From IMG/VR virus record IMGVR_UViG_3300046719_000018, positions 1 through 51,375 of that record: a stretch of DNA of 51,375 bases; one strand, given 5' to 3'. Positions 1 through 51,375 of the stretch are shown piece by piece. The stretch comes from a virus (taxonomy: Duplodnaviria; Caudoviricetes). The notes beneath the pieces are model-generated. The model saw nothing but the letters and a program-made list of their open reading frames with translations. It was not told the DNA's origin and made no database searches. A program made the translations under genes and the position numbers. The first letter of the stretch is position 1, and the number at the start of each line of letters is the position of its first letter.

Positions 1-127
1 CGGGCGGCGCCGACTCTACTTGCCAATCGAGCACGGCATACCCGCTGGTACCATCAGCAACACTCAGAGGGATGCTCGCCTTCCTGGAGCAGTGGATGAT
101 CAGGTCATCGACAGACACGCCCCTGAG
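1..127. repeat. 127-bp exact terminal overlap (copy 1), indicating a circular assembly
   Basis: 1-127 is identical to 51249-51375; 127 is a common assembler k-mer; an ORF reads through the junction. Confidence 0.95.
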
Positions 128-193
128 CGAGGTCGTAGTGACCCGCTTGGTGAGAACGAAGCTTTGTCCGGGGCTGCCGATGACCGAAAGCAC
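1..193 (-). CDS. 5' part of an origin-spanning hypothetical protein (146 aa in total; continues at 51248->51001)
   Basis: GTG at 193 lies just after the stop of 195..536; frame MLSVIGSPGQSFVLTKRVTTTSLRGVSVDDL... joins the 51001..51366 ORF. Confidence 0.7.
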   Translation of the reverse strand, partial: MLSVIGSPGQSFVLTKRVTTTSLRGVSVDDLIIHCSRKASIPLSVADGTSGYAVLDWQVESAPP

Positions 194-194
194 T

Positions 195-536
195 TCAGTC
201 CTCGGCGTCGGGCGTGTACTGCACCTTGCGGGTGACTGGAGTCTGGATCGCCTTGACGATGCTGCCGAAGTGGGTCGCGTAGTTGTCCACCTGGGCTTGC
301 AGGTTCGCGATCTCCTGCTTCGTCTTGCGCTTGTAGGAGTCGTACTCCTTCGTGATTTCGAGCATCTTCTCCTGCGCGTCCCGGTGAACGTCCTCGAGGT
401 CGGTTTCGAGCTCCGTGATGCGCTGGTACATCACCTTGGTGTCCGCAATCACCTGATTCCCGGCCGCAGAGAGCCGGTCATAGGCTGCGGAGACGTTCTC
501 GTTCGCGGTGCTGGTGCGCTGAGCCTTCTTTGCCAT
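195..536 (-). CDS. Hypothetical coiled-coil protein between the two terminase halves
   Basis: 113 aa, helical and charged; abuts the TerL-ATPase stop. Confidence 0.7.
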   Translation of the reverse strand: MAKKAQRTSTANENVSAAYDRLSAAGNQVIADTKVMYQRITELETDLEDVHRDAQEKMLEITKEYDSYKRKTKQEIANLQAQVDNYATHFGSIVKAIQTPVTRKVQYTPDAED

Positions 537-1337
537 CTAGGCTGCCTCCTGTAGGAATAGCTTCCGAGCCTCAGCGCGAGCGCGCTGGTAATTCCATGGC
601 TCGATCAACGGATCGTTGAAGTAGGAGCCTGGATTCACGGTCGAAACCGCCCAGAGCTGCCCGTGTTTCTTGCCTGAGCCGCGCATCGTGGGCAGCACTG
701 CCTCCCACATGTCCTCGGCGTTCGGCATGAACGCGATCTCGTCCCAGAACACGATCCGGTGAGTGAACGAACGGAGCTGGTGATCGCCCTGGTTGTAGGG
801 AAGGATCCAGGAACCCCACTCGACCCACTGCCCGCCGACGAACTTCGCATCGACGCGGAACTGACCTTTGCTCTCTGGTACGTGGTACATGTCCTTGAGC
901 CAAACGGGCAGCATCTCCCACATGGGCCGCTTCAGGTGCTCCTCGATGTGCCGCTCGCCATCGCCGCCCTTCTGGGTGACGTAGGCGATGGTGGTCGAGG
1001 GCATCTCGAGCACGCGATAGAGCGCGCACGCCTTCGCGATCCAGGTCTTGAGCACGCGCCGGCTCGCCGGGAGCAGAAACTTGTGCTCCACCATGAAGGA
1101 GTCGGCTGCATGACCGATGTAGGGGTACTGCGGGAAGCGCTTGATGGGGCTCGAGGCCATCTCGAGCTCGTCGCGAGTGAAGCAGGCTTCGTAGATGAAC
1201 GCCCGCTGCGCTGCGCACCGCGCCGCGTACCATTCCTCGCTCAAAGGCTCGCCTGGAAGCTCCGGAAACCACCGCGCAAGCGCGGCAGACGCCGCGGTCT
1301 TGGCGATCTGGGCTCGGAGCCGCTCGATCTCGCTCAA
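537..1337 (-). CDS. terL: Terminase large subunit, N-terminal ATPase portion (split gene)
   Basis: Deviant Walker A (PASRRVLKT), Walker B (IVFWDEIAF), motif III-like AVSTVNPG; no nuclease domain. Confidence 0.8.
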   Translation of the reverse strand: MSEIERLRAQIAKTAASAALARWFPELPGEPLSEEWYAARCAAQRAFIYEACFTRDELEMASSPIKRFPQYPYIGHAADSFMVEHKFLLPASRRVLKTWIAKACALYRVLEMPSTTIAYVTQKGGDGERHIEEHLKRPMWEMLPVWLKDMYHVPESKGQFRVDAKFVGGQWVEWGSWILPYNQGDHQLRSFTHRIVFWDEIAFMPNAEDMWEAVLPTMRGSGKKHGQLWAVSTVNPGSYFNDPLIEPWNYQRARAEARKLFLQEAA

Positions 1338-1786
1338 AGCGTCTCCTGCGGTACCTCAGAGTCCGATTCGGTCCTGCTTAGGGCTGCGAGGAGCTCTTTC
1401 CGAGCATCTTCGGAGAGGTGACTCGCGTCCTGAGCCATCTTTTCGATGGCTTCGCGCTCGCCAACGAGGACCAACGGCCCGCCACTCTTCGGGCCAGGCG
1501 GTCGGGGCGGAACGATCTGCCGCATCGTCGTTCCGATGCTGAGCATCAGCCGCTCGTAGGCGTATGCAGCCTTGGCGTTCCCCGGATCTCGATCCATGGC
1601 CGCTTCGAGCTTCGGGATGCGCGCTTCTACACCAGAAAGCCACTTCTCCATGAGGGAAAGCGCCCGCGTTTCCATGTCGAGGCGCTTCTTCCGGTTCTCC
1701 TCGTGCTGCTCGAGCTCGTCCATGTCGGGCAGCGCGCTGAGCGCACGCGGATCGAGACGATCCCCGATCCGTTTCGGACGTGGCAT
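1334..1786 (-). CDS. Putative terminase small subunit
   Basis: 150-aa helical protein overlapping the TerL-ATPase start by 4 nt; positional inference. Confidence 0.5.
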   Translation of the reverse strand: MPRPKRIGDRLDPRALSALPDMDELEQHEENRKKRLDMETRALSLMEKWLSGVEARIPKLEAAMDRDPGNAKAAYAYERLMLSIGTTMRQIVPPRPPGPKSGGPLVLVGEREAIEKMAQDASHLSEDARKELLAALSRTESDSEVPQETL

Positions 1787-1792
1787 AGCGCG

Positions 1793-1821
1793 ACTGTACC
1801 CAAACCCGACAGGTGTGTCAA
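1793..1821 (-). promoter_or_regulatory. Sigma70-type promoter TTGACA-N17-TACAGT, 6 nt before the ATG at 1786 (leaderless geometry)
   Basis: Consensus -35, 17-nt spacer, TAnnnT -10. Confidence 0.7.
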
Positions 1822-7827: not shown

Positions 7828-8727
7828 ATGCCGAGCGCGATAGCTACAGATCCGATCGAGACCGCGATAGCCGATTGCCTTGCGGTCATGTCCCCAACCA
7901 CGGCGCCGCGCGTCGAGTACCGCGTGCGCCGCTTCCTGGCCTCGCATCCGAGCCCCTTGGACGTGCGCCCGCCAGCAATCCAGCGATGGGCGTACGCTCC
8001 CACCCGATGGGGCCGACCAGCAGCAGCGCACACCATCCGCGGCAGACTGGTAGCCATTGGCGCCCTGTACCGGCAGCTCGTCCGGGAGGGCTTGCTAGAA
8101 CGCTCGCCCGTGGACTTGGTACCGCGGCCACGCCCGCCCGCGCTGGTACCCCGTGGCCTGTCCCTCGAAGAGACCATGCGCCTATTCCGTGCGCCCATCT
8201 GCGAGGATTGGCGCGGACTACGGACGCTGGCCCTGTTCGTGGGACTCGTGCTCACGGGCTTGCGGGTGTCCGAGTGGATCGGCATCCGTCGCTCGGACGT
8301 TGAGCACCGCCAGCTCGAGAGCGGGCAAGCGGGCTGGACGTTCCGCGTCAAGGTCAAGGGCGGAGCTGAGCGCGTCCGGGAGTGGCCCGTAGCGGCTCGC
8401 CTTGCCATCGAGGCATGGCGCGCAGCGGCTGGCCTACCCTTCGACCAACTTCCGGCGAACGCCCGCCTGTGGCCCTGGAGTCGCGACCTTGCGCTCTACC
8501 TGTGCCGCACCTATGGCGAGCAGGCTGGCATCGCTCGGCTCTGCCCCCATCGGCTCCGCCACACCTGTGCCCGGCTCCGCCGCGAGGCAGGGCAGACCGT
8601 GCAGGAGATTCAAGACACGCTCGGCCACGCCTCGGAGTTGCACACCCTTCGCTACCTGCAACGGATCGTGCCTGTGGCGGACCCCGGCGCCGCGGAACTC
8701 GCGAAGCGACTCGGGCTCAAGCTATGA
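7828..8727 (+). CDS. Tyrosine recombinase (XerC/D-like integrase/resolvase)
   Basis: TGLRVSE, VKGG, PHRLRHTCA, LGHA..HTLRY catalytic residues; AGGAGG RBS. Confidence 0.92.
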   Translation: MPSAIATDPIETAIADCLAVMSPTTAPRVEYRVRRFLASHPSPLDVRPPAIQRWAYAPTRWGRPAAAHTIRGRLVAIGALYRQLVREGLLERSPVDLVPRPRPPALVPRGLSLEETMRLFRAPICEDWRGLRTLALFVGLVLTGLRVSEWIGIRRSDVEHRQLESGQAGWTFRVKVKGGAERVREWPVAARLAIEAWRAAAGLPFDQLPANARLWPWSRDLALYLCRTYGEQAGIARLCPHRLRHTCARLRREAGQTVQEIQDTLGHASELHTLRYLQRIVPVADPGAAELAKRLGLKL

Positions 8728-11203: not shown

Positions 11204-12133
11204 ATGCTGGTAGACCGCATCCTCAAATGGGCGGAAGCAGAGGCCGCCACCCGCAAGCCGACCAACAAGATCGGCGCGCACAACTGCGGCAAATGCCCCC
11301 GGGCCCTCTGGTACATGCTCCACGGTGAACCCGGCGAAGCGTTCCAGCCGCGCGCGATCGTCAACTTCGCACTTGGGGATGCGGTCGAGGACATGACCTT
11401 CCGGCTCATCGAGAAGGCTGCTGTCGGTTTCGTGCGTACCGACGACAAGAAAGACACCTTCGACGTGCCGCCTGTCGGCCGCGTCCGCTCCGATGGAGTC
11501 GTCGCCGTTCCTGACGACGAGCCCGTGTTGACCCTGACCGATGCCGGAGTGGTGCGCTTCCGACCATCCGACCTTGGCATCGCCATCGGAACCGTGCTCC
11601 CGGTCGAGGTCAAGAAAATGTCTGACTTCGCCTTCGCCCGGCTCGAGCGCGGCGTCATCGACGAAACCTATCTCGCTCAGGGAGAAACCTACTCCCGAGG
11701 CTACAAGACCGGCTGGTGGCTGTTGTTCGCCGTCCGCGGCGAGACCGGCCACCTTGCCGAGGTGCTGGTGAAGCAGAGCAACCGCACCTGGGCCCGCATC
11801 GTGACCAACTGCGAGGACGCCAGAGGCGACCAACTCCCGGAGCGCCCCTACGAGGTCAGCGACGCCTGCGAGGGCTGCGAGGGCCGCGGAACGACCCTAC
11901 ACAAGACCCCCCGACCCCATCAGCCGTGCAACGGCACCGGACGCGATCCACAGGGCGCGAAACTGGTCTGGCCCTGCAACTACTGCCCCCACAAAGCCAC
12001 CTGCTGGGCCGACCGAGGAACAATCGAAATGGTCATCGACAACGACAAGCCGAAGTGGTTCGTTAAATCACCTAGTGTGTCCTCTTTTCAAACGCCGGAT
12101 CCGACCGCATCAATCAAGGCTAGTGTCGCCTAG
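11204..12133 (+). CDS. Cas4-like PD-(D/E)XK exonuclease
   Basis: CPRALWY, SDG, EVKKM, QGETY, CNYCPHKATC. Confidence 0.8.
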   Translation: MLVDRILKWAEAEAATRKPTNKIGAHNCGKCPRALWYMLHGEPGEAFQPRAIVNFALGDAVEDMTFRLIEKAAVGFVRTDDKKDTFDVPPVGRVRSDGVVAVPDDEPVLTLTDAGVVRFRPSDLGIAIGTVLPVEVKKMSDFAFARLERGVIDETYLAQGETYSRGYKTGWWLLFAVRGETGHLAEVLVKQSNRTWARIVTNCEDARGDQLPERPYEVSDACEGCEGRGTTLHKTPRPHQPCNGTGRDPQGAKLVWPCNYCPHKATCWADRGTIEMVIDNDKPKWFVKSPSVSSFQTPDPTASIKASVA

Positions 12134-24674: not shown

Positions 24675-25016
24675 CTAGGGCAGCGCCACTGGAGGCACGC
24701 ACCCGCAGCGGGGCATGCAGATGGTTACCAAGTCGCCCTGGTTACCGTAGACGACGACGCCGAGCACTGGAGGCCCTTGGTTGTTCGTGCCGTTGTACCA
24801 CGTCGTTCCGGTAGGGGCTCCGACCATCAGGTACACGCCGGCGGCATTGCCGCGCACGATGCTCGGCGTGGCGCACGGGTCTGGCGTCGGCGCAGCCGTT
24901 GGCCTCGGCAGCGGCGGCGGGATACGAACGGTCGGGCTGTCGTCGCAGCCGGTCAGCAGCAGGACCGATAGAAGAACGCTGATTCGCAGCGTGTCGTGTA
25001 GTGCTCCACTCCACAT
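24675..25016 (-). CDS. Pro/Cys-rich lipoprotein (o-spanin candidate)
   Basis: Lipobox LTGC; downstream of the endolysin; GGAGG RBS. Confidence 0.6.
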   Translation of the reverse strand: MWSGALHDTLRISVLLSVLLLTGCDDSPTVRIPPPLPRPTAAPTPDPCATPSIVRGNAAGVYLMVGAPTGTTWYNGTNNQGPPVLGVVVYGNQGDLVTICMPRCGCVPPVALP

Positions 25017-25026
25017 AGGAAACCTC

Positions 25027-25524
25027 CTACTCCATCGCCCGCCTGAGCCAGCCGGCGGCGTACTTCTCGAAACGAGTCGTGTTCGTTGACTGGACGAGCT
25101 CCCGGTAATGAACGCCCTGCTCGAGCCTCATGGCGTACACGAGGAGTTGTTGGTTGCACATGTTTGCGGCGTGGATCGTGCTCCGCCCGATCGCCCCGTC
25201 CACCGCTACTTCTTCCGGCCGGCGAATCAGGTAGTTGATGGCGCGCTGGAGAATCTCCGAGGCTTTCTTTCGGCCGCAGTTCACGCCGATGTCGAACAAC
25301 TTGACCGCAACGTCAGACTCAAGATCGTTGCAGCCGAGCGGCTCCCAATAGTCGCGATGGTAGATTGCCTTGGCCTGCTCGAGCGTGAGCGCTGCGATGT
25401 CGATATCGGGATAGGCTCGCTTGCTGATTCCGAATTTGGTCTCTCCGCCTGGATCGTCAGGGTCGTTCACGTAGCCGCCCTCCCAGCGGAGAGTCCGTTC
25501 GATCGCGTAGGCGAACCCGCTCAC
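25027..25524 (-). CDS. Endolysin, GH108 lysozyme
   Basis: EGGYVNDPDDPGGETKFGISKR, VDGAIG..T, GWLRR; GTG start at 25524. Confidence 0.92.
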   Translation of the reverse strand: MSGFAYAIERTLRWEGGYVNDPDDPGGETKFGISKRAYPDIDIAALTLEQAKAIYHRDYWEPLGCNDLESDVAVKLFDIGVNCGRKKASEILQRAINYLIRRPEEVAVDGAIGRSTIHAANMCNQQLLVYAMRLEQGVHYRELVQSTNTTRFEKYAAGWLRRAME

Positions 25525-25823
25525 GATGAAGATTCGTCGGGCTCGGGTGAGCGTAGGCGTGCGCTCGGAGCGCGGATGCTGTCCAAGCGGCCGTGGGCTG
25601 CGGCGATAGCTCGCTCGGTCATGGTCAAGCGTGTCTCGACGCCACGAAGGCGCTCGCGCGTCTCGGCCTGGCGGGTGTTCCCATCGCCGACGGTATCCCG
25701 GATCTCGTCCACCTTCTCTCCGAGCGCTTTCACATCGTTGCGCAACCCGTTGAGCACGGCGCCGCACAGCAGAGCGATCAGAGCCGCTACCAAGCCCATG
25801 ATCCACTGAACAATAGGGTCCAA
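25521..25823 (-). CDS. Single-TM coiled-coil lysis-associated protein
   Basis: TTG start with GAGGAG RBS; N-terminal TM followed by coiled coil. Confidence 0.6.
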   Translation of the reverse strand: MDPIVQWIMGLVAALIALLCGAVLNGLRNDVKALGEKVDEIRDTVGDGNTRQAETRERLRGVETRLTMTERAIAAAHGRLDSIRAPSARLRSPEPDESSS

Positions 25824-25824
25824 G

Positions 25825-27618
25825 TCATTCCTCCTCGGGTACTCCCAGGGTGCGGCGGAACATGCTGGTACCACGCTTGCGACCGTTCGAGTAGGCCAGT
25901 TTCAGAGCCTCGCGCTTCTGCTCGTCCTTCAGCCGAGCCCACAGAGGCGTCGCCATCATCTTCTCGACCTCTCCGTGCGCTTCCGCTCCAACGAGCCGGC
26001 TCAACTGCTCATACTGTTGCGGGTTCAGTGCCAACATCTTGGCGGTGCCGAGCTTCGGCTTCTTTCCGATCTGGAGCGAGCGATCGGGAGCGTCCAGTTT
26101 CACTTTCAACGCCACCGCCGCCTGTCGAACCGGATCGTCGGTCACGGAAGAAGCCCGCACCGGGAAGAACAGCGACAGCCCCGGGGAGTCGTTCTTGATG
26201 GGCGTACCCCAGGCGTCGATGCGTTTCGCCAGCCCTTGACTCATGCCGGGAATGCGTGCTCGGAACTCGTCCATCTGCGTCTGCGTGTCGTGCAGGTACG
26301 GGTCGAACAACTGGTTCGCTTTGCTGATCTGGTTCGGAACCGCAGTAGCAACAAGCCGCTGTAGTGCTCGCTTCCCGCCGTTGTCCTTCCAGTCCGTAGC
26401 CGCGTGAACGAGATCCCCGAGCTTCGCGTAGTCGCGCATCGCTGGTAGGTTCTTGACGAACGCCATCGTGACGCGAGCGCCGAGGTTGTCAATCGTTCCG
26501 TCCGACATCTTCGGCAGGATCTCTGCGAAGTTGGCAGCAAGCCCAGCAACCGCTCCGACCGGCCCGAGCAGGCTCAGCTCGATACGCTTGTCGCCGACCT
26601 TTAGGCTGTTCTCCTTGTTCCCGGCAGCGAGCCACGCGCGGCGCTCGTCCGGGTCCACAGGTCCGTTGCCGGTGATGAGACCCTTGCTGACCATGTAGGC
26701 GACCATCGCCATGGCGGAAGTGCCAGCGTTCATCCGTCCGCGGGCAAGCGCCGCCTCGGTTCCGCCAGCCTTCAGCGCAGTGCGCACCTCGGGAAGCACG
26801 AGATGAGCAATGGGAGAATGCTCGAGTGCCGCTTTCGAGAGGTTCGCGGCGATGCGCGGGAACGGCATCAGGAAGCGGCTAGCAAGACGCGCAGCGTCCA
26901 TCATTGGAGCGCTGTTTTCGATAGGCCGACCGAAACGGTCTTTCCCTTCCCCGAATCGTGTCCACGCCTCGGCTACAGGACTACGATCCTGGAACGTCCT
27001 GTGCTTCGCGGCAGTGTCGGCGAGCTTATCGAAGCTCTTGCCGTCCATCATGAACGACTCTGGCTTCTCCTGAGCTCGCGCTCGGTACTCCTCGAGCGCC
27101 TTGCCCTTCAGGCCCTTTTGCAGCCCCTGCCGCGTGGCAAGCGCAGCCACCTCACCGTCGTAGGCCCAACGGTAGAAGAACTCGGTTTCCGCTCTGAGGC
27201 CAGCCATCGGTCCGTAGCGGTCGAGGGCGTTCATCGGCCCGTGCATCTCAGGCTGACCGCCAGCAACACCCTTCCCGCTGCCGTACATGGCGCGGGCTTC
27301 TGTCAGCGCTCGAGCGGTACTGTGGAGCATCCCGGAAATCTTGGCTGGCACCTCGGCGAACCGAACCCGCCCAGGATCTTTGCTGAACGCCTGCCCGGCC
27401 GCAGTAACCGCGGTGGAGTACAGGTCCGACGCGACGCTAGCCATATCGGAAGCCACAGCGCCGCCCAGACTCGAAACGGTCATCAACGATGACTTCCAAA
27501 CCTGGAGCGTCCGCTTGAGCGGAGGCCCCTTGTGCGTGTCGCGGATGAACTTCGCCACCTGAGCCGGATCGTCCATCTTCGCGAGCAGCATTGCCCGCTC
27601 CTGGAGAGTGCAAGCCAT
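25825..27618 (-). CDS. Large internal virion / DNA ejection-like protein
   Basis: 597 aa helical; GLITGNGP.D...R.W...G...NS.KVG motif; last structural gene. Confidence 0.6.
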   Translation of the reverse strand: MACTLQERAMLLAKMDDPAQVAKFIRDTHKGPPLKRTLQVWKSSLMTVSSLGGAVASDMASVASDLYSTAVTAAGQAFSKDPGRVRFAEVPAKISGMLHSTARALTEARAMYGSGKGVAGGQPEMHGPMNALDRYGPMAGLRAETEFFYRWAYDGEVAALATRQGLQKGLKGKALEEYRARAQEKPESFMMDGKSFDKLADTAAKHRTFQDRSPVAEAWTRFGEGKDRFGRPIENSAPMMDAARLASRFLMPFPRIAANLSKAALEHSPIAHLVLPEVRTALKAGGTEAALARGRMNAGTSAMAMVAYMVSKGLITGNGPVDPDERRAWLAAGNKENSLKVGDKRIELSLLGPVGAVAGLAANFAEILPKMSDGTIDNLGARVTMAFVKNLPAMRDYAKLGDLVHAATDWKDNGGKRALQRLVATAVPNQISKANQLFDPYLHDTQTQMDEFRARIPGMSQGLAKRIDAWGTPIKNDSPGLSLFFPVRASSVTDDPVRQAAVALKVKLDAPDRSLQIGKKPKLGTAKMLALNPQQYEQLSRLVGAEAHGEVEKMMATPLWARLKDEQKREALKLAYSNGRKRGTSMFRRTLGVPEEE

Positions 27619-44613: not shown

Positions 44614-45876
44614 CTACCCGATTCCCTTGATCGCCCACTGCGACATCGGCCTCTTGTTGCCGAGGTTCCAGGTCGCGTAGAAGATCGCGCAGTAGGCGAG
44701 GAACTGGTTGATCCACTTGAACACGCCCTCGCCCTTGTCCAGCCAGCGCGGCATCGTGCGGTACCCGAGGAAGAAGCTCGACCAGTCGAGGCCCCAGGCG
44801 ATGCCCTTGGGACACTCCACGTCGCCGATGCACGGGACCGAGCGCTTGTTGAACACCATGCCGAGCGCCTGGAACCCGCCGGTCAGCGTCACGCCCTTGA
44901 TCGACTCGACGGGCATCAGCGCCTGCCGGTTGACCTTGAGCTGGTTGAAGTAGAGCTGTTCCGTGCGGAGGTCGTAGAGGATCACGTCCGTAGACGCGCC
45001 GCCCTTCGTCCGCTCCGCAACCTCGATCATCCGCGTCTGGAACCCGGACTCGAGATTCTGCGTGCCCCACGTCCGCTCGACGTTGCCCTGCCAGTAGGCG
45101 TTGCCCGCAGTGTTGCGGTTCAGCCCGTGCCAAGAGGCATACTCCACGCCGTCGTCCACCGCTTCCGGGAAGCCGTTCGGCATCCGGTTCTTGCTGGTCT
45201 CCGTCTTGGAGCCCCAGAAGAGGTAGTCGTTCGCCGTGAGGTCGGAAGCGTTGGTGAACGTCACCTGGATGTTCGGACCGTCGATCGCGGTCACGATTCC
45301 GGAGAACGAACGCTCCGCGTCGTAGCCCACGAGGTTGGCCGAGGCCGACATCTCGCCACCCTGGAACAGGTAGCGCGTCCCGAAGCCCTTGCCGCCGGTC
45401 TCGCCCTCGTCGTAGAGCGTCGCCACGTTGCCGACGACGGTCTTGACGCGGGCCACCGCGCCGGTCGAATCGTTCCAGAACGAGATCGAGGACTTGTACC
45501 GGAAGCCCTCCATCGTGTCGGTCATCAACTCCGTGGCCGACTCGACGAAGGCGTCGCGGTCGGTCGCCGACGCTTCCTCGCCCTCGATGTCGAACTCCAT
45601 CTGGCTCGACACCTTCGCCATGGTGAGCTCGACCTCTTCCCACTTCGGAACACCGGGACCGGCAACGCGCTCGGACCCGAGCATCCCGCGGAACGAGGGG
45701 TTCATCGCGGTCTTGAGGCTGAACAGCATGTGACGGCCACCGCGCTTGACGGTGCCCGCTTCGCGCATGAGGTTGGTCAGCGCGAAAGTGGTGGTGAATA
45801 CCTGCTTCGCCACCCTGTCGAAGATGTGGTTGTACTTCAGCACCTTCTCGAGGGCGACTACGTTCTGTTGCGCCAT
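44614..45876 (-). CDS. Major capsid protein (probable HK97 fold)
   Basis: 420 aa after portal and scaffold; AGGAG RBS; strong GC3 bias; GLNR....YWQG and terminal IKGI motifs. Confidence 0.8.
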   Translation of the reverse strand: MAQQNVVALEKVLKYNHIFDRVAKQVFTTTFALTNLMREAGTVKRGGRHMLFSLKTAMNPSFRGMLGSERVAGPGVPKWEEVELTMAKVSSQMEFDIEGEEASATDRDAFVESATELMTDTMEGFRYKSSISFWNDSTGAVARVKTVVGNVATLYDEGETGGKGFGTRYLFQGGEMSASANLVGYDAERSFSGIVTAIDGPNIQVTFTNASDLTANDYLFWGSKTETSKNRMPNGFPEAVDDGVEYASWHGLNRNTAGNAYWQGNVERTWGTQNLESGFQTRMIEVAERTKGGASTDVILYDLRTEQLYFNQLKVNRQALMPVESIKGVTLTGGFQALGMVFNKRSVPCIGDVECPKGIAWGLDWSSFFLGYRTMPRWLDKGEGVFKWINQFLAYCAIFYATWNLGNKRPMSQWAIKGIG

Positions 45877-45882
45877 CGGTTG

Positions 45883-46773
45883 TTACTCCTGCGTAGCAGT
45901 GCGCTCCCAACTCGGCTTCAGCAGCCTGGCGACGAGCTTGAAGTCCCGCGCCTTGAACGCTGCATCCAGCTCCGTATCCTTCGCGGCCTGCGATGCGGTT
46001 GGGATCCCACCGCCACCACCGCCACCGTTCTGCGGAAGTTGAGGCTTCGGCTCGTGGCCGAGTGCCTTTGCGTGGCGAGCCCAGCGAGCGAGAACGGCTG
46101 AGCCAGCCCGATCCACGCCCACGGGACCGGCATACCGCTCCGGGTCACCTTCGATGAGGCCGTTGACTTCCTCGACGAAGGACTCCGGATCGTTTGCTGC
46201 CGCCGCGTTCTTCCGCGCGAACTTGTCGATGAGGGCCGACCGCTCGAGTGCAGTCAGGGCTCCCGTGGTGAGGTTCCGTGCCTCGTTGGCGGTGTTACCC
46301 GCGGTCGTGACCTGCGACTTGACCGCATCGAACTCCGTCATCAGGCGACGCGCCCAAGAGGGCATCTCTTCGCCGGCTCCCTCCGAACCGTACCCAGCCT
46401 GCTCCCCATCGGGCTGGCCCTCCGGCTGCTGCACCTCGAGAATGCGCCGGAGCTTCCGACGCCCTTCCGAAGATGCCGCGATACCGGCGAACCATCGCTG
46501 CCCGATCTCGTCGCCGTGACGCTGCTCGAACTCGCGCATCTGTTTCGCGCGACCATCGGCGGAGTGGGTGTAGGCAAGTTTGGTCAGGATGTCGCTGAGC
46601 TTCTCCCTGCTGTATCCCTTTTCCTTGAGCTCGCGGTAGAAGGACACATCCGGGTCTTGCTCGAAAGACGCCTGCTCGGCGCCCCCTGGCGTGTTTGGCT
46701 GCGCCTCACCGGCGCTCGCCCCGGACCCCGCTGCCTGTTCGGCAACGTCTCCCGGCATTCCTGGACTGCTCAT
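45883..46773 (-). CDS. Putative capsid scaffolding protein
   Basis: Acidic disordered N-terminus, helical core, between portal and MCP. Confidence 0.65.
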   Translation of the reverse strand: MSSPGMPGDVAEQAAGSGASAGEAQPNTPGGAEQASFEQDPDVSFYRELKEKGYSREKLSDILTKLAYTHSADGRAKQMREFEQRHGDEIGQRWFAGIAASSEGRRKLRRILEVQQPEGQPDGEQAGYGSEGAGEEMPSWARRLMTEFDAVKSQVTTAGNTANEARNLTTGALTALERSALIDKFARKNAAAANDPESFVEEVNGLIEGDPERYAGPVGVDRAGSAVLARWARHAKALGHEPKPQLPQNGGGGGGGIPTASQAAKDTELDAAFKARDFKLVARLLKPSWERTATQE

Positions 46774-49040
46774 TGAACGGCTCCCTGCTCTGGCTCCACC
46801 GGCGCTTGTTCACCGCCGGGCTGAACTCCCGCCATCGCGGCGAGAGCCCCCGGATCCGATCCGGGACGATTGAGAAGCACGTCGGCCGCCTTCTCGGTGA
46901 CCGATTTCTTCGCTGCCGCTTCTTGCTTGTTCTCGTAGTCCTGTTTCTGCACTGCGATGCCCTTCTGGAGCTGCTTGTCCTGCTCCTGCTCCATGGACTG
47001 CGTGCGCTTCTCGAGCGACGCATTGAGCTGCTGAAAGTAGTCGTCCATGAGCGCGACGACCTTCTTCGGCCAAAGCTCGAAGTCGTCATCGAGAATGCGC
47101 AGGCTCAATTCCTCGAGCAGCGGTGCAGGATCCCAGCGCGGATCGACCTTGACCGGCTTCTGGTCGAAGATGATCCGGTCCTGATTCAGCTCGGCGCGGC
47201 GCCGTTCCTTCGAGAACTCCCCTTCCACCTCGGTCAGGTTCGGGAAGTTGATCCAGCGCAGGAGCTGCGCGCGCATCTTTTCGGTCATGTTCTGCGGAGG
47301 CCCGAACATCCCCTGTTGCAACAGTCCGAGCACGTTCTGAACGCGAGCGCTCGAGAGGTACTGGAGCATCGAGGTGGGCTGCACGAACACGCGGAATGCG
47401 TCGATCTGGAGCTTGTCCTTCTTGAACTCGAACACATGCGAGCGCTTCGACTCGCCCATCATCGCGACCATGGTGCCTTCGTTCTCGAACTGCTTCGCGA
47501 GGTCCAGGAGAAGCTCGCCCTGCTCCTGACGGGCCGAGGCGTGATCACGCACGATCGGCTGCTGGTCTACCGCGTCCGAGTCCTTCAGCATCGCGGCGTA
47601 CTCCGCCGCCGGGATGTTCTTCTGGTGCTGGCCGTACGACTCCGGGAACACCATCGCAACGCGCGACATGCCCTGCTCAGCCTGCGCCTTCAGCCCGAAC
47701 AGCTCGGGTGGAGCAGGAGGCGGAACGAGCCAGTGCGGCGGCGCGGAACCGGGCGCGTGCTCCATCTTGTGAAACCCCATCGCGATGTCCTCGGGGAGTC
47801 CGCTCCCCTTCTCAGCGACGAGGTTCGGGCCGCACAGAATCGCCGCCCAGGTCAACGAGTGCGACAGAGCGGAGTTGATCCGCATCTGCGGCTCACGAAG
47901 GTCAGACGCCCAAGGACGCGGCCAAAACTTGCCGGGACGGGGCAGGCCTGGATAGAGCTGGAAAGGAAGCCGGCCCCGGGACGACTGGAGCGGGGCAATG
48001 CCGAGTAGGCGCGTTCCACAGATGTGGATCTGAACGCCACGCTCCCAACCCGGGTACGGCGCCGGCTTCTGGTAGTACGTGAGCACCAGCAGGCGCCCGT
48101 CAGGGAACGCTCCGCTGTACTGAGTGGGCAGCCGCCCACCCGGCATCACGACTCCGTACCCCTCCGCCGGGCCAGGATCGAACTCCTCATCGTCCTTGAT
48201 GTTCCAGCGACGCCGAACGCTCGCCTCGGACTGCCAGGATTCCTCGATCACATAGTCGGCATTCTGGAACGACGGCTCGGTGAGGCCGACCTGGGGGAAG
48301 ATGCACCACGGGAGCATCCGGACGACGCGCATCTCGCCCTTGTGCCGAGGCAGCTTGTCGTACCACGTCGGCTTCGCATCTAGGACAGCATCCGGATCGA
48401 TGCGCTCCTCATAGATCTCGGGCTCCTTACTCTCCCGCTCCTTCTTGTCCTCCTTCTTCTCCTTCTCGTCCTTGCGCTTCTTGTAGCGTGGCGCGTACTC
48501 GTATTCGATCGTGCCAGCGCAGGGATCCCAGAACGTCTTTTCGATGCCCATACCGAACACGAGGCAGTCGAGGGCGGAGCGGTGCGCGAGCCGCGCGAGG
48601 TCGAGGTTCTTCGCGTAGACCATCAGGAGCTGTTTCGCGTCGCGAGCCGCAAGCTGCGATTCGTAGTCGCGGTTGAGCGCCACCGTGTCGTAGGCCGGCG
48701 GGTTCTGAACGATGCCTGCGGCGGCATGAGCCACGAGGCCGACCATGTGGTTCTCGGTGTACTTCTGCCCAGCGTTCACCGGCCGCGGCAGCAATTCCTC
48801 GAGCGCTTCGTTCCACCACAGCCACTGCCGGCTTTCGTGGACAAACTCGTAGTTGAGCGGCCACTCGCGCTGCTGGAGGTCGATCCTGTCGTTGTAGGAC
48901 GCCTCCTTCCGGCCCCAAACGTGCCGAACGAGGTCGTCGGGAGTGAAATCCGTCTTGGAGAGCGCCAGCTCATCCGAGATCGGACTCCCCGCGTCCACAT
49001 CCGTGGAGCGGTACCCCGACATGCTCGTGTGGACGCTCAT
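46770..49040 (-). CDS. Portal protein
   Basis: 756 aa; D..VFGMG..K..WD, PF..Y, L..PQ..IN, C-terminal Q-rich barrel; follows the terminase. Confidence 0.85.
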   Translation of the reverse strand: MSVHTSMSGYRSTDVDAGSPISDELALSKTDFTPDDLVRHVWGRKEASYNDRIDLQQREWPLNYEFVHESRQWLWWNEALEELLPRPVNAGQKYTENHMVGLVAHAAAGIVQNPPAYDTVALNRDYESQLAARDAKQLLMVYAKNLDLARLAHRSALDCLVFGMGIEKTFWDPCAGTIEYEYAPRYKKRKDEKEKKEDKKERESKEPEIYEERIDPDAVLDAKPTWYDKLPRHKGEMRVVRMLPWCIFPQVGLTEPSFQNADYVIEESWQSEASVRRRWNIKDDEEFDPGPAEGYGVVMPGGRLPTQYSGAFPDGRLLVLTYYQKPAPYPGWERGVQIHICGTRLLGIAPLQSSRGRLPFQLYPGLPRPGKFWPRPWASDLREPQMRINSALSHSLTWAAILCGPNLVAEKGSGLPEDIAMGFHKMEHAPGSAPPHWLVPPPAPPELFGLKAQAEQGMSRVAMVFPESYGQHQKNIPAAEYAAMLKDSDAVDQQPIVRDHASARQEQGELLLDLAKQFENEGTMVAMMGESKRSHVFEFKKDKLQIDAFRVFVQPTSMLQYLSSARVQNVLGLLQQGMFGPPQNMTEKMRAQLLRWINFPNLTEVEGEFSKERRRAELNQDRIIFDQKPVKVDPRWDPAPLLEELSLRILDDDFELWPKKVVALMDDYFQQLNASLEKRTQSMEQEQDKQLQKGIAVQKQDYENKQEAAAKKSVTEKAADVLLNRPGSDPGALAAMAGVQPGGEQAPVEPEQGAVQ

Positions 49041-49432
49041 CCGGCCATCCCCACGCGCTTCTTCGCGGTCTCGAGCCGCTCTTTCATCTCAGCCGCGCGG
49101 TCAGCGTCCCCACGCTCGGTCAGGATCTGCACCGCCTGCTCATACATCGCTACGTCGTCGGAACGAATGGCGAGTTGCGGCTCCGCCTGCTGCACCTTCT
49201 CCACGAAACCGTAGGAAACGCCGCGCGGAGTGAACGTGGCGGGGTCCGCATGGTGCGGAGCGACGCCCTTGACGAGCGTGAGCGCGATTTGTGCCTGCCG
49301 GGCGTGCTCCGCGAGCACCTTGTTCGCCTCACCGACCGCCTGGAGCGCTTCGCTGGTGGCGCGCCGGCCGCGGTGATCGAGCCACGCCATGAGCGAGCTC
49401 AGAATGAGCACGATCAGAAGCTCAGTGGACAT
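49037..49432 (-). CDS. Hypothetical protein with N-terminal TM segment
   Basis: MSTELLIVLILSSLMAWL; between TerL nuclease and portal. Confidence 0.55.
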   Translation of the reverse strand: MSTELLIVLILSSLMAWLDHRGRRATSEALQAVGEANKVLAEHARQAQIALTLVKGVAPHHADPATFTPRGVSYGFVEKVQQAEPQLAIRSDDVAMYEQAVQILTERGDADRAAEMKERLETAKKRVGMAG

Positions 49433-50561
49433 AGATCCCGCCTGCGGCTTTGCTGCGTGGAAGTCTGGTGATCCGGATTGCTCCAGCGTCACCTCGACCA
49501 GCCTCTGCGCTTGCGGCATCCGCCTCCATCTCCTCGAGTTCCATGAGTTCCTCGAAGGTGTCATGGCCGAACCGGCGCCGCTTCAGTGCGTCCATGCGCG
49601 CGTCCCGCATCGCCTCTTCGATGTTCTCCGGAGGATCCCAGGCCATCGTCCTGAGCACGTACCTGAGAGCGTCCGCCGCGTGGTCTGGCATCTTCACCGA
49701 CTTCTCCGGCGTCTCGAGCAACGGGTTGAGCGGCTTCGCCCGAACCATCTTCTCGAGCTGCGCCTCAAGTTCGATCGAGGCCCCCTCCATCAGGTACACG
49801 AGCGGCCGACCCTTGACCGGAACGTGGCAGCGCGTGCATTCGCTCACCGCCTGCTCGTCCTGCTGCTGGTACTGGAGCGTCCCGCAGTGGAAGAAGCTCG
49901 GGAACAGCCCGGAGTTGACGTGCGACTCCGACGCCTGGAGCCGCTGCATCGCGGTCTTGTGCGTGTTCGTCGCGATGTAGATGGGGAACGGATCGCGAGC
50001 GTAGAAGGCGACGTAGGCCGCGCCCGATGGGTCGCCCACAATCCGCTCCAGGTAGCGCTCGAGGCCCGTGATCAGCAACTCCGGCATCTCGACGCTGCGA
50101 TGCTTCGCGATGATCTCGTACACCCGCCGCTTCACGTCGTCGCTGATGCCGCGTGGCTGATAGATGCTGTCGAACACGTACACGCGGCGCGAGATCGGAT
50201 CCTGCGCAACGAACAGGAAGCACGTCGCGTTCGTCTGGCCGAAGTCCACGCCGACGCTGATGGGCCAGTCGGCCGGGATCGGAAACCGAGGAACGACGTT
50301 GCGCGAACGCTGGAACGCCCAGTAGGTGCGCTCGCCATCCGTCGCGTCCGGATCGCCTTCGTACTCCCGGAGCCACTTCGCCGAGTTCATCCCCCCGGCG
50401 TAATCGCTCGATACCTGCTTGGCCCACTCGTGCTGCTTCGTCGGGTCGGCGCTGTAGTGAATGAACATCACCAAAGCACCATTCGCCGTGCGGTACTGTG
50501 CGACACCGCGGAAGGGAGATGTGATCTCCGCCTCGGTCCTGACGACGCCGCGAACGGCCAT
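49422..50561 (-). CDS. terL: Terminase large subunit, C-terminal RNase H-like nuclease portion (split gene)
   Basis: GVDFGQTNAT, YVFDSIY, GDPSG, DHAADALRY; no Walker motifs. Confidence 0.85.
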   Translation of the reverse strand: MAVRGVVRTEAEITSPFRGVAQYRTANGALVMFIHYSADPTKQHEWAKQVSSDYAGGMNSAKWLREYEGDPDATDGERTYWAFQRSRNVVPRFPIPADWPISVGVDFGQTNATCFLFVAQDPISRRVYVFDSIYQPRGISDDVKRRVYEIIAKHRSVEMPELLITGLERYLERIVGDPSGAAYVAFYARDPFPIYIATNTHKTAMQRLQASESHVNSGLFPSFFHCGTLQYQQQDEQAVSECTRCHVPVKGRPLVYLMEGASIELEAQLEKMVRAKPLNPLLETPEKSVKMPDHAADALRYVLRTMAWDPPENIEEAMRDARMDALKRRRFGHDTFEELMELEEMEADAASAEAGRGDAGAIRITRLPRSKAAGGIYVH

Positions 50562-51004
50562 CAGAACACCTCGGTATCGGGAATCGTGGTGACGGTGAGA
50601 TCCTCGCCGCCCGGGTAGATCGCGTAATCCTCGGGAGTCTCCCCTCGCCAGAAGCGGTAACCTCCCGTCGTCGGATTCGTAACCGCGATCGGCGTCACGA
50701 CACCCTGAGAGTCCACCTCGTATCCGTCATCCGTGGTGATGAACAGCGCCGGAACGTCAACCACATCGGTCCCGTTCCACAAAACCGACATGGTGAGCCC
50801 GCCCGTCGGGAACAGCAGCAGGAACAGACGCGCATCCGCAGAGGGAATGGCAAGCAAGAGCTTCGTCTGTCCGGAGAGGCCACCCTGCTGCGGAGCGGCA
50901 CCGATCTCATAGGTCACAGTGGAGCGAGGCACCACCTCGCCTCGTTCGCCATCAGCGGAGTACGAGATGAACAGTTCATCAATGACCGTAACGCGGGTGT
51001 TCAT
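50561..51004 (-). CDS. Hypothetical beta-rich protein between the terminase halves
   Basis: 147 aa, coupled on both sides. Confidence 0.65.
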   Translation of the reverse strand: MNTRVTVIDELFISYSADGERGEVVPRSTVTYEIGAAPQQGGLSGQTKLLLAIPSADARLFLLLFPTGGLTMSVLWNGTDVVDVPALFITTDDGYEVDSQGVVTPIAVTNPTTGGYRFWRGETPEDYAIYPGGEDLTVTTIPDTEVF

Positions 51005-51375
51005 ATGAACCGCCCGTAGCTCACGATGCCGATCGCGCTCCGACCGGAGCTATTCGAGAACGCGATTGCAGGACACGAGCCGACCGACCAAGGCCCATGG
51101 CCGACACGCCACACCTGGAAGTGGAGCGGCTTGACCGTCCAGGTTGGCCCAACCTGCGGCGAAGCCGCGGTGGGAACCGCTGCATCGACGATCCAGAACT
51201 GAAACTCATCCTTCTGGCGCACGCGGAGGTCAACGAAGTAGCCAGAGCCGGGCGGCGCCGACTCTACTTGCCAATCGAGCACGGCATACCCGCTGGTACC
51301 ATCAGCAACACTCAGAGGGATGCTCGCCTTCCTGGAGCAGTGGATGATCAGGTCATCGACAGACACGCCCCTGAG
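51001..51375 (-). CDS. 3' part of the origin-spanning hypothetical protein (starts at 193)
   Basis: Open frame across the circular junction. Confidence 0.7.
   Translation of the reverse strand, partial: LRGVSVDDLIIHCSRKASIPLSVADGTSGYAVLDWQVESAPPGSGYFVDLRVRQKDEFQFWIVDAAVPTAASPQVGPTWTVKPLHFQVWRVGHGPWSVGSCPAIAFSNSSGRSAIGIVSYGRFI
51249..51375. repeat. 127-bp exact terminal overlap (copy 2)
   Basis: Identical to 1-127. Confidence 0.95.

Follow-up and report, generated by a model that had tools for sequence, protein, structure and literature searches.

Current models of the terminase motor rest on one-chain enzymes such as gp17 of phage T4 (PDB 3cpe, 3ezk, 2o0h), a large terminase subunit (TerL). 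A gene interrupted by unrelated genes is known from herpes simplex virus 1 (HSV-1), where UL15, the herpesvirus terminase ATPase and a TerL homologue, consists of two exons that enclose unrelated genes and are spliced to one mRNA and one protein. In models of one-chain terminases the lid/linker transmits the movement that ATP drives in the ATPase core onwards to the nuclease and the DNA, and for the P74-26 enzyme a rotation of the ATPase subdomain and that of the lid against each other is described (PMC7617512). In the Jug phages the terL gene is present as two or three open reading frames (ORFs) whose pieces are rejoined by splicing, the group I introns being ~206 nucleotides (nt) in size (PMC12880540). 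In fractured genes, a phage enzyme gene, including that of a gp17-like terminase, is broken with foreign genes in between; split-intein parts, 88-105 and 33-54 residues long, are attached to the halves and flank a homing endonuclease (Dassa et al. 2009, PMC2677866). Here we describe a TerL that is encoded by two separate genes in the genome of a phage recovered from a soil metagenome (Caudoviricetes; IMG/VR record IMGVR_UViG_3300046719_000018), the whole 51,375 nt of which are referred to as the window.

Like UL15, the gene in the window is interrupted by unrelated genes; unlike the exons of UL15, which are joined into one protein, its parts are two ORFs with a start and a stop of their own, TerL-N (266 amino acids (aa); 537..1337, minus strand) and TerL-C (379 aa; 49422..50561, minus strand). 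A T4-type TerL carries the ATPase and the nuclease on one polypeptide, whereas TerL-N ends at about gp17 residue 300 and the rest of the enzyme is a second gene. Likewise, the core and the lid are covalently continuous in TerL of the Thermus phage G20c/P74-26 (PDB 5oe8, 5oea) but lie on separate polypeptides in the window. The division into more than one ORF is shared with the Jug phages (PMC12880540), but the gap in the window consists of coupled coding ORFs with no intron match, and unlike the fractured genes (PMC2677866) the window has neither intein parts nor a homing endonuclease. No description of an intron-less and intein-less two-gene TerL was found in the literature searched.

The first and last 127 nt of the window are identical, and by its classification the record has direct terminal repeats and is 100% complete. 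Across the circular junction, 1,223 nt separate the stop of TerL-N from the start of TerL-C (from the coordinates and the 127-nt overlap), with ORFs of 113, 146 and 147 aa in between, as had been described in an earlier reading of this DNA made without database searches (the sequence-only reading). Positions 48900-51375 are contained in a 51,256-nt Logan contig of sequencing run X1 (positions 24792-27267) with 0 differences. Since a second assembler reproduces the circular junction in this contig, the junction is not an artefact of one assembler, and the misassembly named beforehand as a possible refutation was not seen. Run X1 may be the source sample of the window; run X2 contained only two 151-nt contigs, both within TerL-C, and none of the sequencing runs listed as holding this DNA was an RNA run.

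By their profile matches, TerL-N and TerL-C are two halves of one T4-type large terminase. In phrog_2 (terminase large subunit, 807 positions) TerL-N occupies positions 262-410 (E 1e-12) and TerL-C positions 437-612 (E 4.5e-10); the latter also matches phrog_10250 and phrog_5653. A 519-position profile built from TerL-C and one-chain relatives (A6) is covered by TerL-N at 19-209 and by TerL-C at 222-512, the halves abutting without overlap. The split of the large terminase into two genes proposed in the sequence-only reading is thus confirmed by matches to consecutive parts of both profiles. The same N and C matches abut on one chain in one-chain relatives, for example in P0007 (25-245 and 274-578) and P0012 (12-236 and 247-576). 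In the complete genome, A6 matched TerL-N and TerL-C only, with no second TerL.

A profile of N-half relatives (A7, 59 sequences) aligned with T4 gp17 residues 97-301 (E 7e-26), which, together with the phrog_2 match, upholds the identification of 537..1337 as a terminase ATPase. The window TerL belongs to the same family as gp17 and the TerL of T4-like cyanophages, and the alignment of the N-half profile includes SRQLGKT at the P-loop, the Walker B motif and TTT at motif III. From position 243 onwards, A6 aligned with residues 194-417 of G20c TerL (E 1.9e-15), a stretch that we take to span lid plus nuclease according to the general subdomain layout of gp17 and G20c/P74-26 TerL. It also matched the nuclease domains of SPP1 and P22 TerL (2wbn, 4dkw). 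Among cultured phages, the family comes closest to T4-like phages, with 25-28% identity. Sister-lineage homologues are full length (76% identity over 266 aa for the N half, 67% over 381 aa for the C half and 63% over 147 aa for the 147-aa ORF), and a word-index protein search with TerL-C returned only 2-4 proteins.

A search of the protein library with TerL-N gave 255 hits at E<=1e-3. Among the best 150 of these, 99 were shorter than 345 aa and mostly ended 4-47 residues past the same helix, while 51 were longer, 37 of which carried both the N and the C matches. The split or fused state in this set rests on protein length alone, and related loci were therefore scored on DNA. Scans of the viral, metagenome and genome collections with the window's own proteins or with the alignment A2 gave no close relatives, but 5 metagenome loci and 78 IMG/VR loci were recovered with A3, which aligns N halves. 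For the latter, open frames on the plus strand were scored with the one-chain profile. The halves were split in 66 of the 78 loci, the N frame ending at profile positions 211-220 and the C frame beginning at 217-241, and every split C frame has a start codon of its own just before the hairpin that opens the C half. Six loci were fused (L016, L017, L023, L040, L043 and L057) and five contained only an N half, three of them with less than 1.3 kb of downstream sequence. The remaining locus, L060, has TerL matches spread over four short frames (profile 12-42, 46-132, 259-290 and 408-470), and is probably a decayed or frameshifted copy. Comparison of synteny in related phages, suggested earlier as a check, thus revealed the same break in a majority of the loci. 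In one locus, L021, an N half is present, but no C half was found on that strand in the 6,973 nt downstream of it; its halves may be far apart or on opposite strands.

After removal of 15 loci with an N half more than 90% identical to a kept one, the non-redundant set contained 51 split relatives. The gap from the N stop to the C start was at most 80 nt in 19 of them (7 being ATGA overlaps), 81-500 nt in 10, 501-1,500 nt in 11 and more than 1,500 nt in another 11, with a maximum of 3,223 nt. The catalytic residues were retained: the Walker A K-S-R, the Walker B D-E and the nuclease aspartates D106 (DFG) and D177 (GDP) are kept in 51/51 relatives. Gap sizes differ even among near relatives separated by end branches of at most 0.13 (-4 nt in L055, 55 in L046, 411 in L025 and 511 in L054). 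The closest IMG/VR relative, L013, has a 137-aa ORF followed by the N and C halves with an ATGA overlap, a 250-aa ORF and the portal gene, and in the next closest, L014, whose sequence is identical to that of L003, other genes take up ~2 kb between the halves.

A FastTree analysis of 58 DNA-verified N domains (52 split, 6 fused) yielded 5 changes of label, with starred branches forcing at least 3 of them. The window groups with L013 and L014 in a starred clade, the fused L023 falls inside a starred clade of 15 split rows, and fused forms are few and scattered among the split ones. The tree and the gap sizes fit an old split with quick turnover of gap content and occasional re-fusion, as read from unrooted trees with weak deep branches. 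A careful tree of the window's 17-row clade did not decide between fission and re-fusion.

To locate the break, the halves were mapped onto solved structures by profile alignments, which place it elsewhere than at the linker between ATPase and nuclease. TerL-N ends after the helix that follows motif III, at about gp17 residue 300, with a tail of 24 residues. A beta hairpin (FRGVAQYRTANGALVMFIHYSADP) opens TerL-C, followed by WLREY and then by the DFG motif of the nuclease; the hairpin corresponds to residues ~17-35, the lid to ~36-75, and the predicted RNase H-like nuclease with D106 and D177 comes thereafter. The HYSADP and WLREY motifs noted earlier as resembling the lid/linker are both present in TerL-C. 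In the fused relative P0019 the Pfam domain Terminase_6N extends to residue 281, past the break, so the cut falls inside the ATPase module and separates the core from the final strands and the lid. The suggestion in the sequence-only reading that the ATPase module itself is cut is therefore supported by the extent of Terminase_6N in P0019 and by the alignment of A6 to G20c TerL.

The motifs of TerL-N are Walker A PASRRVLKT (residues 90-98), Walker B IVFWDE (D199, E200) and motif III (S232-T233), with ASRRVLKT (91-98) aligning to SRQLGKT of gp17. The Walker A motif had been singled out as deviant for its missing glycine. The glycine is indeed absent, but this is not peculiar to the window phage: the P-loop consensus throughout the family is KSRQxxxTW, without the classical Gly-Lys pair of gp17, and the window reads ASRRVLKTW. 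At the position of window A91, a lysine is found in 51/51 IMG/VR relatives, whereas the window has its lysine, K97, at the classical position (window 1044-1070, minus strand). None of the 51 relatives has a lysine at the K97 position, which is occupied by A (24), V (15), L (4), M (3), I (2), T (2) or W (1). The sister protein P0003 shares the window version, and P0005, P0008 and P0016 have both lysines. Judging from these sequences, the Walker A lysine of the window's small lineage seems to have shifted to the place that it holds in the classical GK[ST] motif, and the proteins with both lysines could represent an intermediate state.

Two further features of the halves are noted here. The last residue of TerL-N (537-548, minus strand) is alanine in 13/13 members of the window clade, with endings such as EAA, EVA, VAA, RGA and KVA, and L013 ends in PAA. 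The ATGA overlap can explain GCA at the end of the N half in some cases, but not the GCC-TAG-ATG of the window, and the C-terminal alanine may be a docking or stability signal. In TerL-C, a cysteine cluster is found at residues 226-245 (49826-49886, minus strand), with C226, C242 and C245 invariant in 6 sequences and CCG...C..C in most relatives. This cluster looks like a small zinc-binding insert in the nuclease domain.

Complex prediction from the alignments A7 and A6, a modelling check proposed in the sequence-only reading, gave a score of 0.90 for TerL-N and TerL-C in 3/3 runs, against 0.00 for the best of 3 controls; 116/157 solved complexes and 2/215 mismatched pairs reach the 0.90 mark. 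The runs agree in at least 87% of the contacts, and the predicted local distance difference test (pLDDT) value of the partner is at least 72. In the confident contacts, N residues 86-90 (KFLLP), which form the strand leading into the P-loop, are paired with C residues 29-34 (ALVMFI). Further contacts are predicted between the N tail (250-257) and C residues 21-35, C residues 65-74 also touch, and N residues 264-265 are at the interface. These contacts look as strand complementation of a split Rossmann-type sheet would. What this check shows is likeness to a one-chain TerL and not binding.

Taken together, the shared break in the 66 loci, the intact catalytic residues and the predicted complex argue for a two-chain packaging motor, as the sequence-only reading had proposed, and it is likely that the window carries an old, stable fission of a T4-type TerL that has been kept by selection. 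One operon would give rise to two polypeptides. The RecA-like ATPase core, which carries the P-loop, Walker B and motif III, would come from TerL-N, and TerL-C would complete this fold with its final beta hairpin and add the lid subdomain as well as the nuclease. The chains would most likely reassemble by strand complementation, with C strand 29-34 joining N strand 86-90, and the tail helix of TerL-N (244-265) would clamp the hairpin of the C half. The resulting heterodimer would act as one TerL protomer of the motor on the portal, with the movement between ATPase core and lid crossing a non-covalent interface. The sequences show the two genes and their complementarity, a shared and conserved break point, retained catalytic residues and a variable gap; the assembly, stoichiometry and activity of the two chains are inferred.

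Several results weigh against this reading. TerL-N scored 11.9 bits against Pfam Terminase_6N, below the cut-off of 22, and a 3-sequence profile of the C half matched no solved structure. The third acidic position of the nuclease, D293, is aspartate in 9/51 relatives as aligned, in a poor alignment. In the tree of 137 rows labelled by protein length (14 having been dropped for partial coverage) there were 29 changes, at least 8 of them forced, and split and fused forms were heavily interleaved. The score of the predicted complex may stem from the model's memory of one-chain TerL structures, and would then reflect likeness instead of binding. Finally, that both chains are made, bind each other and package DNA is deduced from sequence and prediction.

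More broadly, it is fairly probable that a large uncultured clade of phages has a TerL that is cut inside the ATPase fold, with the RecA-like core and the lid-plus-nuclease as strand-complemented chains that transmit the ATP-driven core-lid movement over a non-covalent interface, an ancient and stable fission, a boundary in the middle of terL at which cargo (methyltransferases, cytidylyltransferases, ORFans) comes and goes quickly, and occasional re-fusion. The interest lies mainly in the cut being inside the motor domain and being the majority state of this clade. A cut between core and lid in 66/78 loci would be a ready-made system for models that are based on one-chain enzymes, and such a natural cut could show which contacts are needed for force, whether the stoichiometry of motor to cutter is variable and how chains are paired. 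Two-gene terminases also break TerL-based phage classification and those completeness checks that expect one long ORF.

It is improbable, although some of the loci point that way, that the halves work apart, with TerL-N alone forming the translocating ring and TerL-C serving as a free nuclease/lid factor that is recruited for cutting only, so that no stable heterodimer forms. Cargo of up to 3,223 nt between the halves and the lack of a C half downstream in L021 would agree with such a division of labour. However, the break inside the ATPase fold deprives TerL-N of its final strands and of the lid, to which a coupling of hydrolysis to movement is ascribed (PMC7617512), and the interface predicted for the halves is a pairing of strands beside the P-loop.

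Still less probable is the removal of the insert by an undescribed intron, trans-splicing or a split intein, by which one chain would be restored. Precedents are the terL genes of Jug phages, which are split by introns of group I (PMC12880540), and a gp17-like terminase fractured by a split intein in marine metagenomes (PMC2677866), and the fused relatives P0028 and P0054 carry LAGLIDADG inserts. Yet there is no non-coding space among the five ORFs from TerL-N through TerL-C, and no room for intein parts, the homology reaching residue 242 of 266 in the N half and starting at residue 9 in the C half (at most 24 and 8 extra residues). Furthermore, 19/51 relatives have adjacent halves in different frames with their own starts, and HNH endonuclease is encoded by 1 of the 80 gap ORFs in relatives.

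The known types of insert were searched for separately. Rfam gave no match in the window at the gathering threshold and none in the gap at E<=1, except for an irrelevant weak ylbH match upstream; at E<=0.1 there was none in 7 relatives with gaps of 200-520 nt, and 12 related loci in all were without a match at loose thresholds. Rfam covers described intron families only, so an undescribed splicing element is possible, which is a further point against two separate chains. An intron-interrupted gene (group I/II) was rejected in the absence of a ribozyme core between the halves by Rfam. Hint, LAGLIDADG, HNH and GIY-YIG domains were not detected in the window ORFs at E<=1 (Pfam), and a split-intein fractured gene was rejected, since the break lacks intein parts and the ORFs between the halves include no homing endonuclease. 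Splitting by a free-standing homing endonuclease was also rejected, none being present in the window and a single HNH_3 match among the 80 gap ORFs of 30 relatives. A short duplication at the break (N tail versus C head) scored no higher than shuffles in DNA or protein. Read-through of the TAG of TerL-N into the in-frame ATG of the next ORF was rejected as well, TAG being an ordinary stop that ends 22 of the 64 ORFs of the genome that passed a filter on G+C content at third codon positions (GC3). As a separate observation, the inserts of P0028 and P0054 are ~330 aa in size and match LAGLIDADG_3, and that of P0028 is placed after the DFG motif of the nuclease. By sequence, the two inserts are elements of the intein type that sit at a conserved catalytic motif; the split site, in contrast, falls in a variable linker.

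The two-chain motor could in principle include the three intervening proteins, ORF113 (195..536), ORF146 (193..1 continued at 51248..51001) and ORF147 (50561..51004), all on the minus strand, as dedicated accessory subunits, as the sequence-only reading had suggested. We consider this very unlikely. The three ORFs are translationally coupled in the same operon, and ORF147 is conserved in one relative at 63% identity. That homologue, P0162, is the only one in the protein library and also of 147 aa, which indicates that ORF147 is a real gene in the sister lineage. On the other hand, no homologue of ORF113, ORF146 or ORF147 was found among 10,314 frames of related loci, many relatives lack a gap, with halves that are adjacent or overlapping in 19 of the 51, and the other gaps hold unrelated genes (methyltransferases, cytidylyltransferases, a regulator and unknowns). 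Given that the related loci contain no homologues, ORF113, ORF146 and ORF147 are, as far as their sequences tell, lineage-specific cargo and not conserved subunits, and the suggestion is not upheld. Family searches agree in giving little: only sub-threshold coiled-coil matches for ORF113 in Pfam, PHROGs and PADLOC, no Pfam, PHROG, PADLOC or Atlas match for ORF146, and no family match (Pfam, PHROGs and PADLOC) and a poor Atlas model for ORF147. ORF146 and ORF147 were rejected as paralogues, with no similarity between them.

That the gene is merely broken and decaying or an assembly artefact is scarcely credible: the genome is a metagenomic one and the second assembly may share its sample, but it is complete and without another TerL, a second assembler gives the same junction sequence, and the same break with intact catalytic residues recurs in the 66 related loci.

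Under the two-chain reading, the cargo ORFs would sit at what became an ordinary gene boundary, with quick gain and loss, and the junction between the TerL halves would be a place to look for phage accessory genes. We scanned the gaps of at least 200 nt, present in 30 loci, for ORFs of at least 45 aa, and compared the resulting 80 ORFs with Pfam (E<=1e-4). Methyltransferase families were matched by 9 ORFs, CTP_transf_like by 5, HTH_3 plus Sigma70_r4 by one and HNH_3 by one, while 64 had no Pfam match. The cytidylyltransferase-like gene is located directly after the N half in L052, L068, L069, L076 and L079. A methyltransferase is encoded by the gap ORF that follows it in L052, L076 and L079, in L068 a TylF-type methyltransferase is located at the far end of the gap, and in L069 none was detected. 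FkbM-type methyltransferases were found in the gaps of L070, L078, L085 and L090. The cytidylyltransferase and methyltransferase genes may represent a conserved modification cassette lodged inside the split terL.

The packaging region of the window consists of eight ORFs arranged head-to-tail on the minus strand, from a 150-aa ORF through the portal gene. Ahead of this operon, a consensus scan alone identified a sigma-70-like promoter candidate, TTGACA-17-TACAGT (1793..1821, minus strand; 10/12 matches), and no terminator-like sites were found on the minus strand across the split region. The 150-aa ORF (1334..1786, minus strand) is directly upstream of TerL-N and gave no match in Pfam, PHROGs or PADLOC; L003 and L013 have a similarly sized ORF at this place, and by its position only the 150-aa ORF is a candidate for the small terminase. 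Its stop overlaps the TTG start of TerL-N as TTGA. TerL-N ends with TAG, directly followed by the ATG of ORF113 (GC3 0.88), and after a 1-nt spacer ORF146 (GC3 0.75) starts with GTG at 193 and runs as one frame across the circular junction, its 5' part at 1..193 and its 3' part within 51001..51375, to the stop at 51001. ORF147 overlaps its neighbours by 4 and 1 nt, as ATGA with ORF146 and as TGATG with the ATG of TerL-C, which has a GAGG 9 nt upstream. GC3 values are coding-type in all five ORFs from TerL-N through TerL-C (0.74-0.88). Between TerL-C and the portal gene lies ORF175 (175 aa; 49037..49564, minus strand), for which L013 has a homologue in the corresponding place (E 1e-6) and L003 gave a weak match (E 0.008); going by these matches it is a conserved member of the packaging module. 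The portal protein (756 aa; 46770..49040, minus strand) matches phrog_156 (E 1.9e-8) and is 25% identical to that of L003.

The window has a GC content of 64%. Elsewhere it encodes an integrase (phrog_1; 7828-8727, plus strand), a Cas4-domain exonuclease (11204-12133, plus strand), an internal virion protein (25825-27618, minus strand), a major head protein (44614-45876, minus strand) and tail fibres. The presence of the integrase together with the major head protein, portal, internal virion protein and tail fibres indicates a temperate tailed phage, and the match to an internal virion protein suggests that the particle may be podovirus-like.

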